Source: Flavobacteriaceae bacterium (GTDB lineage: Bacteria; Bacteroidota; Bacteroidia; Flavobacteriales; Flavobacteriaceae). From it: DNA of 32,000 nt. The DNA is taken from assembly GCA_965224465.1 (NCBI GenBank), contig OZ245049.1:960001-992000 (forward strand). Reading direction: 5' to 3'. Below, one piece after another: positions 4,907-22,717 of the stretch. How positions within the stretch are numbered: the stretch's first letter is position 1; each line of letters begins with the position of its first letter. The notes under the pieces are model-generated. The model worked only from the letters and a program-made list of their open reading frames with translations, searched no databases and was not told the DNA's origin. The translations under genes were made by a program, and so were the position numbers.

Positions 4907-5635
4907 ATGGTATTTTATATTATTGGAGCTATTATTTTGGTAGGTATTATAGCATATGTTGCTGTAAATTATATCCCAAAAAAATTACATTGGATATTAT
5001 CTATTGCACTACTTGGTGCAGCAGGATATTTATTGTTTTTAATTAATAGCAGCATTATGGAGCCTTTACGCTTCAACAAAGAAAAGCAAATTCGTTATGC
5101 TCAAGTCATCAAAAACCTAAAGGTGATTAGAGATGCTCAAGTTGCCCACAAAACGGTAACTGGAGAGTTCACAAAAAGCGGAGAAGACTTAATCAAGTTT
5201 ATTGACACTGCACAGTTTGCAATTACGCAAACTCGTAACATCGTAGTAAAAGAGAAACGTGGTCTTATTACTGTAGATGTAGAAAAAAGAGTTATTGATA
5301 CGATTGGACATGAACCGGTAAGAGCTAATTTTGCTGGAAAAAATTATAAAAACATGCTTAAAGTAAAAGGCATGGACAAAATAAAATTTATTTTTGCTGT
5401 TGACGAAATTGAAAAATTCGGAAAATTAACCGAGCCTGTATTTGAAGTGAAAGTTGATAAAAAAATAGTTTTAGAAGGAATGACAGACTATTTAATTCGT
5501 CAAGAATTAGAAGCAGCTACCGGAGACGAAGTAAGAGGTAAATTTATCTCTGTAGGATCTCTAAATGAAGTTAGTGAAAACGGAAACTGGCCTCCATATT
5601 ATGACAAAGCAGATAAGCAACTTAATAAACAATAA
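4907..5635 (+). CDS. hypothetical membrane-anchored protein
   Basis: Long ORF. The likely start is MVFYIIGAIILVG (ATG 4907), which gives two N-terminal hydrophobic helices. No recognisable catalytic motif. Confidence 0.7.
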   Translation: MVFYIIGAIILVGIIAYVAVNYIPKKLHWILSIALLGAAGYLLFLINSSIMEPLRFNKEKQIRYAQVIKNLKVIRDAQVAHKTVTGEFTKSGEDLIKFIDTAQFAITQTRNIVVKEKRGLITVDVEKRVIDTIGHEPVRANFAGKNYKNMLKVKGMDKIKFIFAVDEIEKFGKLTEPVFEVKVDKKIVLEGMTDYLIRQELEAATGDEVRGKFISVGSLNEVSENGNWPPYYDKADKQLNKQ

Positions 5636-6455
5636 AGAAAATTATAGCAATTTAAAGCATTGCAATCTATCCATCCAACTAAGTTTGGATGGATTTTCTT
5701 TTTGTATAACTAAGCCACATTCTCAAGAGATTATTTGCTTAGAACGGTATCAATTTAAACAAAAACCAAGCAATCCATTTGAGCATTTAAAGTCTGTAGA
5801 ACAACTTATTAAAACCATAGATGTACTACAACACTCCTTTAATGCTATCAAGGTTTGTCACAGTAATAATTTGGCGAGTTTAGTACCCGTCTCTATTTTC
5901 AAAAAAGAACAAGCAGCCAGTTATTTAGGATATAACATTCGTGTTTTAAAAGATGATTTTATCAGTCATGATGAGATTTCACATACCGATATTGTAAATG
6001 TATATGTACCATTTGTCAACTTTAATAATTTCTTATTTGAAAAATATGGAGATTTTAATTTCAAACATTCGGCAACAATCTTTATTCAAAGCATCTTAAA
6101 ACAAGCTAAAAACACTTCCAACAACCAAGTATATGTAGCATTGGAACATGGATTTATGGAAATAATTGTACTCAAGGATAACAGCCTTCAACTGTACAAT
6201 TCGTTTCAGATTAACAGTAAAGAAGATTTTATCTATTACATCCTGTTTACGACAGAACAGTTGCAATTAAATCCAGAAGTGTTTGAACTTGTACTCATGG
6301 GAACCATTAGCCCTAAAGATGCTTATTTTAAATTAGCAAAAAAATACATTAGACATGTACAATTAATAGACATGACGACCACTTATCAACCCTTATTAGA
6401 TACCGCAACTAAGCAGGCTAACTTTAATTTAATACACTTACACGAATGCGTATAA
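5601..6455 (+). CDS. conserved hypothetical protein, possibly the Bacteroidota DUF3822 family often found upstream of rsmD
   Basis: Long ORF. The start is uncertain: MTKQISNL at 5601 overlaps the previous gene by 35 nt. The family assignment is from memory of gene context only. Confidence 0.6.
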   Translation: MTKQISNLINNKENYSNLKHCNLSIQLSLDGFSFCITKPHSQEIICLERYQFKQKPSNPFEHLKSVEQLIKTIDVLQHSFNAIKVCHSNNLASLVPVSIFKKEQAASYLGYNIRVLKDDFISHDEISHTDIVNVYVPFVNFNNFLFEKYGDFNFKHSATIFIQSILKQAKNTSNNQVYVALEHGFMEIIVLKDNSLQLYNSFQINSKEDFIYYILFTTEQLQLNPEVFELVLMGTISPKDAYFKLAKKYIRHVQLIDMTTTYQPLLDTATKQANFNLIHLHECV

Positions 6456-17015: not shown

Positions 17016-17089
17016 GGCGTGGTAGCTCAGTTGGTTAGAGCGTCGGATTCATAACCCGGAGGTCTGCAGTTCAATTCTGCATCACGCTA
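17016..17089 (+). tRNA. tRNA with CAT anticodon (Met elongator; a lysidine-modified Ile2 cannot be excluded)
   Basis: Hand-folded cloverleaf: acceptor ggcgtgg/tcacgct (two G-U pairs), D arm gctc-agttggtta-gagc, anticodon loop ttCATaa, T arm tgcag-ttcaatt-ctgca. It is not initiator-like (no C1-A72 mismatch, no GGG/CCC in the anticodon stem). No CCA is encoded. Confidence 0.85.
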
Positions 17090-17095
17090 CAAGTA

Positions 17096-17128: not shown

Positions 17129-17572
17129 TTTAAAATTTAGAGAAATCAACTTCTTAAAAACTGATAAAGGCTGGAGGATATACCAGAGATCAGTTGGACT
17201 GCTGATCATTACTTTTACCGTGAAAATAATTCGAATATATGTATTTCCCTTCTTGTTAATTTAACAGGTCATCCCTCTGGGATTCTTATTCTATTAATTT
17301 TTTATTTGCTACGAACAGTTTGTCCCTCTGGGACTTCTACTTTTACCTGCTACAGAAAAGTAATTTGTTTGTGTTTCATCTTTTATAACATCACTTTTGA
17401 AAGTCGATTTCTGTAATTGAGAAAGCAGGATATATTCTAATAATTGTCTCTTATAATATGCTCCGTAGGTGCAAACTGTTTGTTTTGTTATAATACCTGT
17501 GATATATTTGTGCGATTCATCACTGTTTTATTTATGTATTAGGGTTTGCCTGCCTTTTAACGTAAAAACAAT

Positions 17573-17770
17573 TTGAATGTATATTTGCGTATATGTATTT
17601 GCCTTCTTGTTAATTTAACAGGTCATCCCTCTGGGATTCTTATTCTATTAATTTTTTATTTGCTACGAACAGTTTGTCCCTCTGGGACTTCTACTTTTAC
17701 CTGCTACAGAAAAGTAATTTGTTTGTGTTTCATCTTTTATAACATCACTTTTGAAAGTCGATTTCTGTAA
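17573..17770 (+). CDS. questionable 65-codon TTG-start ORF inside array unit 2 (hydrophobic, Cys-rich)
   Basis: Track ORF. The start codon is TTG, not ATG, and there is no in-frame ATG. It is repeated in units 2-5 only because the DNA is repeated. Confidence 0.15.
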   Translation: MNVYLRICICLLVNLTGHPSGILILLIFYLLRTVCPSGTSTFTCYRKVICLCFIFYNITFESRFL

Positions 17771-17924
17771 TTGAGAAAGCAGGATATATTCTAATAATTG
17801 TCTCTTATAATATGCTCCGTAGGAGCAAACTGTTTTTTTGTTATAATTCCTGTAATATATTTGTGCGATTCATCACGGTTTTGTTTATGTATTAGGGTTT
17901 GCCTGCCTTTTACCCTAAAACAAT

Positions 17925-18122
17925 TTGAATGTATATTTGCATATATGTATTTGCCTTCTTGTTAATTTAACAGGTCATCCCTCTGGGATTCTTATTCTAT
18001 TAATTTTTTATTTGCTACGAACAGTTTGTCCCTCTGGGACTTCTACTTTTACCTGCTACAGAAAAGTAATTTGTTTGTGTTTCATCTTTTATAACATCAC
18101 TTTTGAAAGTCGATTTCTGTAA
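17925..18122 (+). CDS. questionable 65-codon TTG-start ORF inside array unit 3
   Basis: Same as 17573..17770, with one R-to-H difference. Confidence 0.15.
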   Translation: MNVYLHICICLLVNLTGHPSGILILLIFYLLRTVCPSGTSTFTCYRKVICLCFIFYNITFESRFL

Positions 18123-18276
18123 TTGAGAAAGCAGGATATATTCTAATAATTGTCTCTTATAATATGCTCCGTAGGTGCAAACTGTTTTTTTGTTATAATT
18201 CCTGTAATATATTTGTACGATTCATCACGGTTTTGTTTATGTATTAGGGTTTGCCTGCCTTTTACCCTAAAACAAT

Positions 18277-18474
18277 TTGAATGTATATTTGCGTATATGT
18301 ATTTGCCTTCTTGTTAATTTAACAGGTCATCCCTCTGGGATTCTTATTCTATTAATTTTTTATTTGCTACGAACAGTTTGTCCCTCTGGGACTTCTACTT
18401 TTACCTGCTACAGAAAAGTAATTTGTTTGTGTTTCATCTTTTATAACATCACTTTTGAAAGTCGATTTCTGTAA
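18277..18474 (+). CDS. questionable 65-codon TTG-start ORF inside array unit 4
   Basis: Identical protein to 17573..17770. Confidence 0.15.
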   Translation: MNVYLRICICLLVNLTGHPSGILILLIFYLLRTVCPSGTSTFTCYRKVICLCFIFYNITFESRFL

Positions 18475-18629
18475 TTGAGAAAGCAGGATATATTCTAATA
18501 ATTGTCTCTTATAATATGCTCCGTAGGTGCAAACTGTTTTTTTGTTATAATTCCTGTAATATATTTGTGCGATTCATCACGGTTTTGTTTATGTATTAGG
18601 GTTTGCCTGCCTTTTAACGTAAAAACAAT

Positions 18630-18827
18630 TTGAATGTATATTTGCGTATATGTATTTGCCTTCTTGTTAATTTAACAGGTCATCTCTCTGGGATTCTTAT
18701 CCTATTAATTTTTTATTTGCTACGAACGGTTTGTACCTCTGGGACTTCTACTTTTACCTGCTACAGAAAAGTAATTTGTTTGTGTTTCATCTTTTATAAC
18801 ATCACTTTTGTAAGCCATTTTTTGTAA
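18630..18827 (+). CDS. questionable 65-codon TTG-start ORF inside diverged array unit 5
   Basis: The ORF length is preserved despite 9 nt differences: 4 codons changed synonymously and 4 non-synonymously. This is not decisive. Confidence 0.15.
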   Translation: MNVYLRICICLLVNLTGHLSGILILLIFYLLRTVCTSGTSTFTCYRKVICLCFIFYNITFVSHFL

Positions 18828-19089
18828 TTGAGAAAGCAGGTTGTTTTCTAATATTTGTTCGGGTTGTGTGGTCATACTTGCCTCTTATAACATGCTCCGT
18901 AGGAGCAAACTGTTTGTAGCACCATAGGTGCGACCTGTTAATCTATCCATTCAAATAATCATTTTTCCCAAATCCTCACTTAAACACCTATAAATGATGC
19001 GTGTGAAACTTTAGTTATTAATGGACAGTCTTGGCTTTTGTGCTATTAATAATTATAATAATGTAGTTTAGTTTCTGCTTCAAAAGTTT

Positions 19090-20004
19090 TTAATTCCACC
19101 CCTTACTCTTAAGTACCCATCCATTATTAAGTTTAATGACAGGAGGTTTCACCTGTAATTTATTATAGTATTTTTCAAATATCTTATCTTCCTTTTCTTT
19201 GTCCTCAGTGGCGTACGAATAAGCGAACATGAATTTGGGTTGGGACGCAAGGATTTTTACGCGTTTGTCAATGAGACCAAAATCTTGCTTTTGAATTAAA
19301 GTTTTTTTCATTTCAGCCATAAAAGATTTCGGATTTCGTTCGATTGAACTTTCATAACATCTTAAATGAGCTTCGAGTCCAGATACACCACCTAGAGCCC
19401 CACTTCCTTTCTTAAGCTCAATAACACAAAGAACTCCTGCTTTATTTACCGCTATGATATCAAATCTAGGTTTTTTTATTTTCCCATTTCTCCCTTTATA
19501 GATACAAGCAAATTTACTTTTCGTACTCACTTGATATTCTATGTCAATAATTGTATAGTCAGATTTTCCATCACGATTTTCAATAGATAATTGATGTTGC
19601 TCTATCCTTTCTGGTTTCTGATTTAGTTTGATCCATTTATCCATAACCCCTTTGGCTTCATCAAAATATTCCTTAAAATTACCTGATTTGAATTTTTGGG
19701 TCAACTCATTTCTTTTCTGTGTCAATCTTTCTATCATCTCGCTACCTAAATCTTTTGCAGCTCCATTTTCTCCTGTATAGAAATAGTTTTTATTAAACAA
19801 TACGCTATTTGCGCTACTAACCATGGCTATATTTCCTCCTTGATAATAGATATTCAAGTAATTGTTTCGAATTTGAACATCTAATTTATTTCTGTCCTTA
19901 TAAATTACATCAAGCATTGGTTTCAACGCACCTGATTTCAATGTCAATGCATCCCACAACTTACCTTTATGAATTCCTCTACCTAAGTATTCCTTATCCA
20001 CCAT
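19090..20004 (-). CDS. PD-(D/E)xK nuclease-fold protein, family unassigned (possibly a Shedu/DUF4263-like or restriction-endonuclease-like orphan)
   Basis: 304 aa with a clean ATG start. The core motif is PRFD(182)IIAVNKAGVLCVIE(196)LK(198)KG, a beta-strand with D, then a hydrophobic strand with ExK, followed by LEAHLRCY. The N-terminal ~130 aa has no motif I recognise. Confidence 0.6.
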   Translation of the reverse strand: MVDKEYLGRGIHKGKLWDALTLKSGALKPMLDVIYKDRNKLDVQIRNNYLNIYYQGGNIAMVSSANSVLFNKNYFYTGENGAAKDLGSEMIERLTQKRNELTQKFKSGNFKEYFDEAKGVMDKWIKLNQKPERIEQHQLSIENRDGKSDYTIIDIEYQVSTKSKFACIYKGRNGKIKKPRFDIIAVNKAGVLCVIELKKGSGALGGVSGLEAHLRCYESSIERNPKSFMAEMKKTLIQKQDFGLIDKRVKILASQPKFMFAYSYATEDKEKEDKIFEKYYNKLQVKPPVIKLNNGWVLKSKGWN

Positions 20005-20371: not shown

Positions 20372-20536
20372 ACACTTAATTTATACTGATTATTACACAA
20401 ATTTAAAAGGTAAAAAATAACTGTTACTAGATTTTGATTGACAAGGAGTTTTCTTAAAATCTAATACGATAACTCTTCGAAATACTAAGTACAACTAATT
20501 TAAAAACTTTAAATAAGCGACCCTTTTACTTATAAT

Positions 20537-20690
20537 TGCAATCCAAAATAACCGATATAAATAGTTTATTTTACGTGCTTGCATTGTTTAAAAACAGAAC
20601 GATAACAAAGGCTATACATCCATTTTCCGCCTATCTAAAACAAAAAATAATTCCATTTCTAAACTGTCACTTGGGAATTTAATTGGAATT
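20537..20690 (+). repeat. dispersed intergenic element, copy C
   Basis: tgcaatccaaaataaccgatataaatagtttattttacgtgcttgcattgtttaaaaacagaacgataacaaaggctatac...ccgcctatctaaaacaaaaaataattccatttctaaactgtcacttgggaatttaattggaatt. The internal hairpin is degenerate (4 of 6 pairs). Confidence 0.85.
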
Positions 20691-22248: not shown

Positions 22249-22412
22249 ATACCAACTTCAACACAAAATGACCCGTATAAATAGTTTGTTTTACGTACTA
22301 GCGTAGTTAAAAAGCAAACAGAACGATAGCGAAGGTTATCCATCGATTTTTTGAGTCGCTAAAACAAAAAATAGTCTATTTTTAAAACGTCACTTGGAAA
22401 TGTATTGGGATT
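22249..22412 (+). repeat. dispersed intergenic element, copy D
   Basis: ataccaacttcaacacaaaatgacccgtataaatagtttgttttacgtactagcgtagttaaaaagcaaacagaacgatagcgaaggttatcc...cgctaaaacaaaaaa...cgtcacttggaaatgtattgggatt. The hairpin gatagc-gaag-gttatc is intact with one G-U pair. Confidence 0.85.
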
Positions 22413-22642
22413 CGTAATTTTGGAGACTAAATATTATCGTTTATATTCAGAGTGTTATATACTCGAGCGTACACCATGAATTCTTTTCTTTATTTTTTTA
22501 ACCGCCATCTATTATATTATGAGCTAATTCTTGGTTTCCACAACCTTTTATCTTTCTAGAATTCCACTCTTGGACAAGTGCTAAAATACATCTTGTTAAA
22601 TTTTGGGCATTAAAAAAGGCCTGATAAAATCAGACCTTTTAG

Positions 22643-22717
22643 GGTGAAAGACCGGTTTCGAACCGGCGACCTCCTGAACCACAATCAGGCACTCTAACCA
22701 ACTGAGCTACAATCACC
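22643..22717 (-). tRNA. tRNA-His (GTG) with encoded G-1
   Basis: Hand fold of the reverse complement: G-1, acceptor gtgattg, D arm gctc-agttggtta-gagt, anticodon stem cctga/tcagg with loop ttGTGgt, T arm gccgg-ttcgaaa-ccggt, 3' acceptor ctttcac, then C73. G-1:C73 is the His identity element. Positions 5:68 and 6:67 are U-U mismatches. Confidence 0.8.

Follow-up and report, generated by a model that had tools for sequence, protein, structure and literature searches.

We analyzed a 32,000-nt stretch of the genome of a Flavobacteriaceae bacterium (assembly GCA_965224465.1, contig OZ245049.1, positions 960,001 to 992,000; hereafter the window), which has the appearance of a chromosome of the Flavobacteriia type (33% G+C and a Flavo-1 RNA) and carries an intergenic tandem array of small hairpins, each preceded by an AACAG tag, together with pieces of a gene for a Y1 transposase of the HUH (histidine-hydrophobic-histidine) type. 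Tandem Repeats Finder (TRF) placed the array at 17236–18858, with a period of 352 bp, 4.6 copies and 97% identity. Alignment of the units extended the homology to the left to approximately 17212, inside a stub of the Y1 gene, and to the right to 18914, the end of a motif designated C. The first unit was truncated, and the last one was diverged and contained 23 additional nt.

Tagged hairpins and Y1 gene fragments in the array

Four versions of a 21-nt motif were present in the array (A, B, C and D, Table 1), each of which consisted of the AACAG tag, a 3-nt spacer, a 5-bp stem and a 3-nt loop; the coordinates and sequences of A and B on the plus strand, and of C and D on the minus strand, were all as given in the original prediction. 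Motif B was located 51 nt downstream of each A, and the 25-nt spacing between C and D recurred in other genomes (loci L078, L117 and L089). The inner copies, A and D, had the spacer GTC, and the outer copies, B and C, had TTT. In addition, a CTAC prefix preceded B and C, an arrangement shared by relatives such as L106, and in the family consensus the outer copies typically have CTAYA as a prefix. In unit 5, motif A (18674–18694) had one stem mismatch and motif B (18725–18745) was degenerate, with an AACGG tag and a GTACC/GGGAC stem.

Motif C was intact only in units 2 and 5 (17814–17834 and 18894–18914), whereas its copies in units 1, 3 and 4 (17460–17480, 18166–18186 and 18518–18538) had the sequence GCACC-TAC-GGAGC with one A·A mismatch, a distribution which had been recognized before. 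These mismatched copies had been described as a chimera, GCTCC-GTA-GGTGC, that arose by recombination between C and D. However, they are one base off C, retain its TAC loop and have its spacer TTT, where GTC would be expected after a D/C crossover, and the same A·A variant (GCACC...GGAGC) was found in at least 12 unrelated loci.

The motif was commoner than expected in shuffled sequence: the strict motif had 12 matches in the window compared to a shuffle mean of 0.10 (maximum 1), and the paired-motif pattern had 5 matches compared to 0.00. Eleven of the 12 strict matches were copies of only four independent instances, generated via tandem duplication. Because most copies have this origin, the statistics within the window overstate significance, and the decisive support therefore comes from other genomes. 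Motif A and the other hairpins of the window folded as single-stranded DNA (ssDNA) with a 5-bp stem and a 3-nt loop at modest energies (−1.9 to −5.1 kcal/mol); the evidence for pairing is covariation, not energy.

Every unit also contained, precisely in the interval from C to A and on the minus strand, codons 2–42 of the Y1 gene, as revealed by tblastn and unit alignment. The best-matching fragment, at 18537–18659, filled the C-to-A gap and had AAG where the start codon ATG was expected. Next to motif D, a possible remnant of the Y1 C-terminus was identified (8 of 9 residues identical in tblastn, with E = 2.3 when taken alone), which is credible because its place beside D matches the layout observed in other genomes. 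Only pseudogene fragments, and no intact Y1 gene, were found in the window; therefore, the array is most likely inert debris, a decayed amplified relic rather than an active system.

Table 1. Coordinates of the hairpin motifs, Y1 gene pieces and associated features, numbered from the first nucleotide of the window
Feature	Position	Strand	Remarks
Motif A, AACAGGTCATCCCTCTGGGAT (AACAG-GTC-ATCCC-TCT-GGGAT)	17263-17283, 17617-17637, 17969-17989, 18321-18341	+	Inner copy beside Y1 start
Motif B, AACAGTTTGTCCCTCTGGGAC (AACAG-TTT-GTCCC-TCT-GGGAC)	17314-17334, 17668-17688, 18020-18040, 18372-18392	+	Outer copy, GCTACG before it
Motif C (AACAG-TTT-GCTCC-TAC-GGAGC)	17460-17480, 17814-17834, 18166-18186, 18518-18538, 18894-18914	-	Outer copy, opposite side
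Motif D, AACAGGTCGCACCTATGGTGC (AACAG-GTC-GCACC-TAT-GGTGC)	18919-18939	-	Inner copy beside Y1 C-terminal remnant; 25 nt from C
Y1 (IS200-like, subclass 1.2-type) pseudogene fragment, codons 2-42, ANTYTQIYIQIVFTLKGRQTLIHKQNRDESHKYITGIITKK	18537-18659	-	tblastn, 66% identity, E 2e-14
Other Y1 fragment copies	17480-17602 (internal stop), 17842-17954 and 18194-18306 (frameshifted), ~17212-17250 (stub)	-	Unit alignment
Possible remnant of last 9 Y1 codons	18941-18967	-	EK*LFEWID, family C-terminus EKYLFEWID; abuts D
Array of 352-bp units	17212-18914		Plus-strand order per unit: Y1 5' fragment, A, B, segment x, C
Segment x	18041-18165		Between B and C, in every unit; unit alignment
tRNA-Met	17016-17090	+	Array starts ~120 bp downstream; context only

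The motif family and its partner gene in other genomes

We scanned 185,579 genomes (one genome per species of GTDB) for two motifs located 25–51 nt apart, in which the only fixed positions were AACAG, both inner C:G pairs and the T that starts the loop; counts of paired-motif loci given here and below refer to the matches listed. The paired motif was detected in at least 119 genome loci, approximately 90 of which among the matches listed were from Bacteroidota or related taxa of the Fibrobacteres-Chlorobi-Bacteroidetes (FCB) group, including Cytophagales, Chitinophagales, Flavobacteriales, Bacteroidales, Sphingobacteriales, Rhodothermales and Ignavibacteria. Among these matches, the distribution was nearly confined to this one group of phyla. 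In the FCB loci, the three unconstrained stem pairs were all complementary in 217 of 260 unique copies (1/64 expected by chance) and represented 12 stem types, whereas in loci from other phyla this was the case in only 7 of 78 copies. A covariation count over 117 sequences showed 95.9% paired cells and 62 double-sided changes, compared to 12.1±2.9 in shuffled data (none of 500 shuffles was as high), and the signal collapsed in controls in which the partner was slid. Thus, the hairpin is under selection as a structure, and its complementarity is preserved in relatives, as the original prediction had anticipated. The extended consensus was ttCTAyA-AACAG-GnC-GCyCC-TAC-GGrGC-T, a unit of ~29 nt, in which the 5-bp stem was GC-rich and a T followed the stem in 74% of copies.

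The copies clustered in intergenic regions, another point on which the prediction held: only 3 of 236 were inside open reading frames (ORFs) of at least 150 aa, although such ORFs cover 75% of bases. Multiple loci per genome were observed, with at least 13 in one Rhodothermales metagenome-assembled genome (MAG), where the partner gene described below was present in only one among the matches listed, and at least 6 in one Cytophagales MAG. The gene-less Rhodothermales loci were intergenic and had the form of a symmetric quadruplet of ~200 bp, which corresponds to the flanks of the Y1 gene minus the gene itself, with the order outer hairpin-CTGTTTGTAG, inner hairpin-CTGTT, a short center, AACAG-inner hairpin and CTACAAACAG-outer hairpin. 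Because these dispersed quadruplets are equivalent to gene flanks without the gene, they point to a relationship like that between REPINs, which are doublets of repetitive extragenic palindromic (REP) sequences, and REP-associated tyrosine transposases (RAYTs). Tandem amplification of such units was also frequent elsewhere, as 25 of 118 loci among the matches listed had a tandem array with motif copies, with periods of 25, 47–60 and 103–237 bp.

Additional observations were made in individual genomes. The loop of the inner GCTCC hairpin contained another small palindrome, CTGCCCCCGCGAAGGCGGGGGG, at several loci of the Rhodothermales MAG (L102, ~2925–2955; L116, ~540–575; L167, ~4945–4975; L173, ~5780–5815), i.e., one repeat family was nested in another. 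A Verrucomicrobia MAG (L144, 1216–2305) contained an array with a 68-nt period and 17 copies of AACAG-AAT-GCCCC-TGT-GGGGG, which may be an array similar to clustered regularly interspaced short palindromic repeats (CRISPR), or another array that meets the search pattern by chance. The tandem repeat AACAGTCGAGCCCTTTGGGCT (26/50 nt) of a giant-virus-like contig (L052, 1904–2076) agreed with the motif in tag, spacing and stem/loop geometry. We rejected it as a family member, since it consists of one repeated palindrome in a eukaryotic-virus context and is probably a coincidence. A scan of viral contigs yielded one convincing relative, the provirus contig L026, in which the motif pair (9–79) was located at the contig end and a Bacteroidetes-type tyrosine integrase gene (652–1860) was found ~570 bp downstream, with a 60-nt tandem repeat between them. 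We found no description of the motif in the full-text literature (subscription-only literature was outside the search), and string searches returned only primers and unrelated sequences.

Clustering of ORFs over the motif loci revealed one recurrent family, a protein of ~153 aa, in at least 20 loci. By tblastn, this Y1 family was detected in 25 of 82 loci among the matches listed, flanked by inverted motif doublets. Cultured carriers included Amniculibacterium aquaticum KYPW7 (L156), Dyadobacter sediminis Z12 (L100) and Epilithonimonas pallida DSM 18015 (L097). Minus-strand copies of the motif were located on one side of the Y1 gene and plus-strand copies on the other, 2–110 bp away, with the AACAG tags facing the gene, which occurred in either orientation between the flanks. 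No recurrent integrase or DDE transposase neighbor and no tnpB beside the Y1 gene were detected in this clustering. The original prediction had proposed that the motif is an HUH/Y1 substrate in the manner of REPs and RAYTs, and this idea gained support from the inverted motifs on both sides of a PF01797 gene in other genomes as well as from the Y1 pieces in each unit of the array. On the other hand, the neighboring 304-aa protein, which had been suggested as the binding partner, had no detectable relation to HUH or other families, and it is not needed in this role; the probable partner is the Y1 pseudogene inside the unit.

The ~153-aa protein matched PF01797 (Y1_Tnp, 1.9e-24) and the NCBIfam model NF033573 (IS200/IS605 transposase, 66.4 bits, cut-off 55), and scored 35.1 bits on NF047646 (REP_Tyr_transpos), under its cut-off of 80. 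The family profile matched the structures of ISDra2 and IS608 TnpA; that of E. coli TnpA_REP was not matched at E≤0.001. Among 15 sequences, H55, H57, W95, Q96, Y115, Q119, H122 and H123 were invariant, and P53 and D54 were nearly so; the HUH motif was PDHxH, followed by WQ and the Y motif KYILNQEEHH. Compared by eye with published motifs, and not with the HMM (hidden Markov model) of the authors, the family fits the signature of subclass 1.2 (DH[IV]H, WQ, Y---Q--HH; ~148 aa). This subclass was previously reported as low-copy, present in Bacteroidetes and Cyanobacteria only, lacking IS200 ends and marked 'REP: no' in the one study that defines it (Quentin et al. 2018, PMC6006769), and the AACAG motif is absent from the supplementary REP table of that study.

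In a reciprocal test, 80 metagenomic loci were picked by similarity to the Y1 protein alone and searched for hairpins of the form NNNCC-loop-GGNNN. Within 150 bp of the gene, hairpins were present upstream in 61 of 75 loci, downstream in 65 of 78 and on both sides in 50 of 73, and their density fell from 10.2/kb close to the gene to 0.38/kb at a distance, and was 0.03/kb within it. More distant Y1 proteins had the same architecture with other tags (AACAT, AATAT, ATAAT/ATTAT and AATAG), often with CTAYA before the tag. The tag tracked the protein clade, as the identity was 0.676 for same-tag and 0.610 for different-tag proteins (none of 2000 permutations was as high), which fits cognate recognition.

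Interpretation and alternative explanations

We consider it likely that the motif is a REP-like repeat of a widespread extragenic family of Bacteroidota that flanks a Y1 gene, and that the array of the window is a tandemly amplified dead copy. A normal locus in Bacteroidota and allied phyla consists of motif doublets ~50 nt (sometimes 25 nt) apart, inverted around one Y1 gene in the arrangement hairpin-NNN-CTGTT, gene, AACAG-NNN-hairpin. With gene-less inverted quadruplets of ~200 bp scattered in intergenic DNA, the organization is that of a REPtron with REPIN-like satellites. The ancestral locus of the window may have had the order C-D-Y1-A-B, with Y1 on the minus strand, C and B as the outer copies and D and A as the inner ones. 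This locus would have been duplicated in tandem together with adjacent DNA (segment x), a single deletion would have taken D and Y1 codons 43–153, and the shortened unit of 352 bp would then have been amplified to 4.6 copies.

By analogy with IS608 and ISDra2 TnpA and with E. coli TnpA_REP, the Y1 enzyme would bind the hairpin in ssDNA, for example in the lagging-strand template, and the 5' tag, 3 nt from the hairpin foot, may serve as a recognition or guide element. The predicted substrate of a subclass 1.2 enzyme is an ssDNA that carries CTACAAACAGGTC plus the hairpin, with CTAYA as a candidate cleavage site. In TnpA_REP, the 5' tetranucleotide serves both recognition and the choice of the cleavage site (PMC8266576). 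Cleavage and rejoining of nearby DNA by the enzyme could spread the doublets, and tandem arrays might arise from slippage, from unequal recombination between close direct copies or from enzyme-made breaks.

Several points weigh against this interpretation. Approximately a quarter of the protein-selected loci had no detectable hairpin on one side, and within the 32-kb window the motif was confined to the array. The co-clustering of tag and enzyme would equally follow from vertical co-inheritance alone. The 5-bp stem is much shorter and weaker than those of known REPs, and the enzyme, with 35 bits on NF047646 where the cut-off is 80, is nearer to true IS200/IS605 transposases than to characterized RAYTs. 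For subclass 1.2, the case for binding, for the cleavage site and strand and for the tag's role is argued by analogy throughout, and the order of the events that built the array is a reconstruction which represents the most economical history.

Alternatively, an ordinary autonomous insertion sequence (IS) of the IS200/IS605 type might have the motifs as its ends, and the array would be a pile-up of IS fragments and not part of a domesticated REP/REPtron-like system. The protein clears the NCBIfam cut-off for IS200/IS605 (66 bits compared to 55) but not that of the REP-associated model, ISDra2 and IS608 TnpA are the solved structures nearest to it, and Y1 pseudogenes and second partial copies do occur, e.g., in L105, L122 and L172. 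We regard this explanation as unlikely: an IS200/IS605 element has two unlike subterminal hairpins, both on one strand, as its ends, whereas inverted copies of one motif were observed here around a gene in either orientation; most clusters were gene-less (57 of 82 loci among the matches listed, and 12 of 13 in the Rhodothermales MAG); no adjacent tnpB appeared in the ORF clustering; and subclass 1.2 proteins have a low copy number and no IS features according to Quentin et al. (PMC6006769). A main function in RNA, whether as terminators, as stabilizers of mRNA 3' ends or as sites for a hairpin-binding protein, with the Y1 link being secondary, is very doubtful for the hairpins. Their extragenic location and the T after the stem would suit such a role, which is also a secondary one of E. 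coli REPs (PMC6006769), but only this single T and no U-tract is conserved, the hairpins are weak, and the conserved part is located 5' of the hairpin, as in HUH substrates. Moreover, clusters of the motif are symmetric about the gene of a DNA-processing enzyme, with copies in both orientations. This symmetry, together with the lack of any Rfam match of the array even at E≤1 (only tRNAs and Flavo-1 were found in the window at the gathering threshold), also speaks against the earlier suggestion of a hairpin-binding RNA protein.

Could the motifs be duplex sites for a recombinase or regulator, such as arm sites of a tyrosine integrase near a tRNA, iterons, or the inverted/direct repeats (IR/DR) of a DDE transposon? 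The stem sequence varies freely within and between genomes while complementarity is kept, which is expected for a folded single strand and not for a sequence-specific duplex site. The array is indeed located ~120 bp from tRNA-Met, the motif pair of L026 is ~570 bp upstream of a tyrosine integrase gene at a contig end, and the 25/50-nt spacing with inverted inner and outer pairs resembles multi-site transposon ends. Nevertheless, Y1 was the only recurrent neighbor gene, with no recurrent integrase or DDE cluster, and no integrase gene was seen in the interval between tRNA-Met and tRNA-His, so that we find duplex sites highly improbable. Among the specific candidates, integrase arm sites were rejected since L026 was a single case and no integrase cluster was recurrent, and ends of a DDE-type transposon or miniature inverted-repeat transposable element (MITE) with TA flanks, like those of Tn7, Mu and Sleeping Beauty, were dropped because the recurrent neighbor is a Y1 gene and the stems covary. 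Finally, the window offers only four independent instances, as might be expected for chance palindromes multiplied by tandem duplication, but this possibility is already refuted by the occurrence of a 21–29-nt architecture with covarying stems in ~90 independent loci of one phylum group, where it flanks one gene family.

Segment x, which is interpreted above as adjacent DNA, is non-REP DNA swept along by the amplification; it had no family or structure match in Pfam, PADLOC and PDB sequence searches. In the last unit it corresponds to 18746–18893, is 23 nt longer, and has a 51-aa ORF (18720–18875, minus strand) that starts within the 23 nt private to this unit and extends into the reverse complement of motif B. 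The candidate assignment of this ORF or of segment x to the N-terminus of the type I restriction protein HsdR received no backing from the same searches, and weak tblastn matches of segment x to mid-Y1 residues were discarded as noise, as their positions were mutually inconsistent.

The array is located in a gene-poor stretch bounded by tRNA-Met and tRNA-His (22642–22716), in which the sole ORF of at least 150 aa was the family-less 304-aa one (19090–20004, minus strand). Inspection by eye suggested a D...ELK motif in this protein, reminiscent of PD-(D/E)xK nucleases; no Pfam, NCBIfam or PADLOC match and no link to the array were found. Between the array and tRNA-His, the same stretch contained the Flavo-1 RNA (RF01705, 21230–21304, plus strand, 62.6 bits). 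It also contained a direct repeat of ~135 nt with 75–78% identity, the copies of which (20534–20664 and 22254–22388) were 1.72 kb apart and each located beside a small minus-strand ORF.

Relationship to REP, REPIN and IS200/IS605 systems

To our knowledge, descriptions and tests of REP/RAYT systems come almost exclusively from Proteobacteria, where the palindromes are tagged with GTAG or CGTC, and we know of no characterized equivalent in Bacteroidota, a dominant phylum of gut, soil and ocean. It is an even call whether the subclass 1.2 Y1 proteins, which the only published survey lists as lacking REPs, have their missing cognate DNA in the mini-hairpin doublets with the AACAG tag, such that Bacteroidota and allied phyla would have their own REPtron/REPIN-like system, derived independently from class 1 (IS200-type) proteins and not from class 2 RAYTs, in which the 5-nt tag diversifies with the enzyme, suggesting a re-programmable guide. 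If true, this would provide a function-linked partner for a whole subclass of 'orphan' Y1 proteins and a second, independent route from an IS200-like transposase to a domesticated repeat-handling enzyme. It would also account for many unannotated tandem arrays and palindromes in intergenic regions of Bacteroidota, and would offer a compact natural series of tag/enzyme pairs for studying how HUH enzymes read their guide, which is relevant to HUH-tag and ssDNA-targeting tools. For the window itself, the outcome is mundane, i.e., a decayed amplified relic.

The system shares several features with the REPtrons of E. coli, Pseudomonas, Stenotrophomonas and Marinomonas, which comprise REPs or bacterial interspersed mosaic elements (BIMEs) together with TnpA_REP (RAYT). 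In both, short palindromes outside genes have a conserved tag on the 5' side of their hairpin, copy numbers are multiple or high (for the present family, in the Rhodothermales and Cytophagales MAGs), clusters and BIME-like tandem arrays occur, a single Y1 HUH gene stands between inverted copies, and tag and hairpin vary with the enzyme lineage. On the other hand, known REPs have GTAG or CGTC directly at the foot, whereas here AACAG (or AACAT, AATAT, ATAAT or AATAG) stands 3 nt away from it; the stem has only 5 bp and closes a 3-nt loop; and the basic repeat is a pair of direct copies ~50 nt apart, of which the outer one is preceded by CTAYA. In addition, the enzyme belongs to class 1 (IS200-like, subclass 1.2) and not to the class 2 RAYTs, failing NF047646, and the host range is Bacteroidota/FCB, unlike that of the proteobacterial REPtrons.

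REPINs, which Bertels and Rainey are said to have described in 2011, are reportedly inverted REP doublets mobilized by a single-copy RAYT. The gene-less symmetric inverted units of ~200 bp resemble them in being intergenic and in having the same layout as the flanks of the single Y1 gene; this likeness is one of layout. They differ from REPINs in that each arm is itself a doublet, giving a quadruplet, and in that the spacers between hairpins are poorly conserved, so that a single long hairpin is not evident.

The closest protein relatives of the Y1 family are found among IS200/IS605 elements (IS608, ISDra2), in which small subterminal hairpins are recognized in single-stranded form and a guide sequence lies on the 5' side of the hairpin foot (PMC8266576, PMC6006769). 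These elements have distinct left and right ends on one strand, whereas one motif in inverted copies forms both flanks here; moreover, the gene occurs in either orientation, is mostly single in the loci listed, had no adjacent tnpB in the ORF clustering and coexists with many gene-less copies. A further similarity, in non-GTAG tags and weak secondary structure, is with the atypical REP-like structures of Quentin et al. (2018), i.e., those of subclass 2.6 in Bacteroidetes and of class 3 with a CnGA foot, which were found by manual inspection beside Y1 genes and had copies elsewhere in the genome (PMC6006769). The subclass 2.6 proteins are characterized by NH[LIV]H, YIH[QN]NP and a length of 179 aa, whereas the family described here has PDHxH, YILNQEEHH and ~153 aa. 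The system works like a REPtron/REPIN and yet misses two defining features, the GTAG/CGTC tag and a class 2 RAYT.

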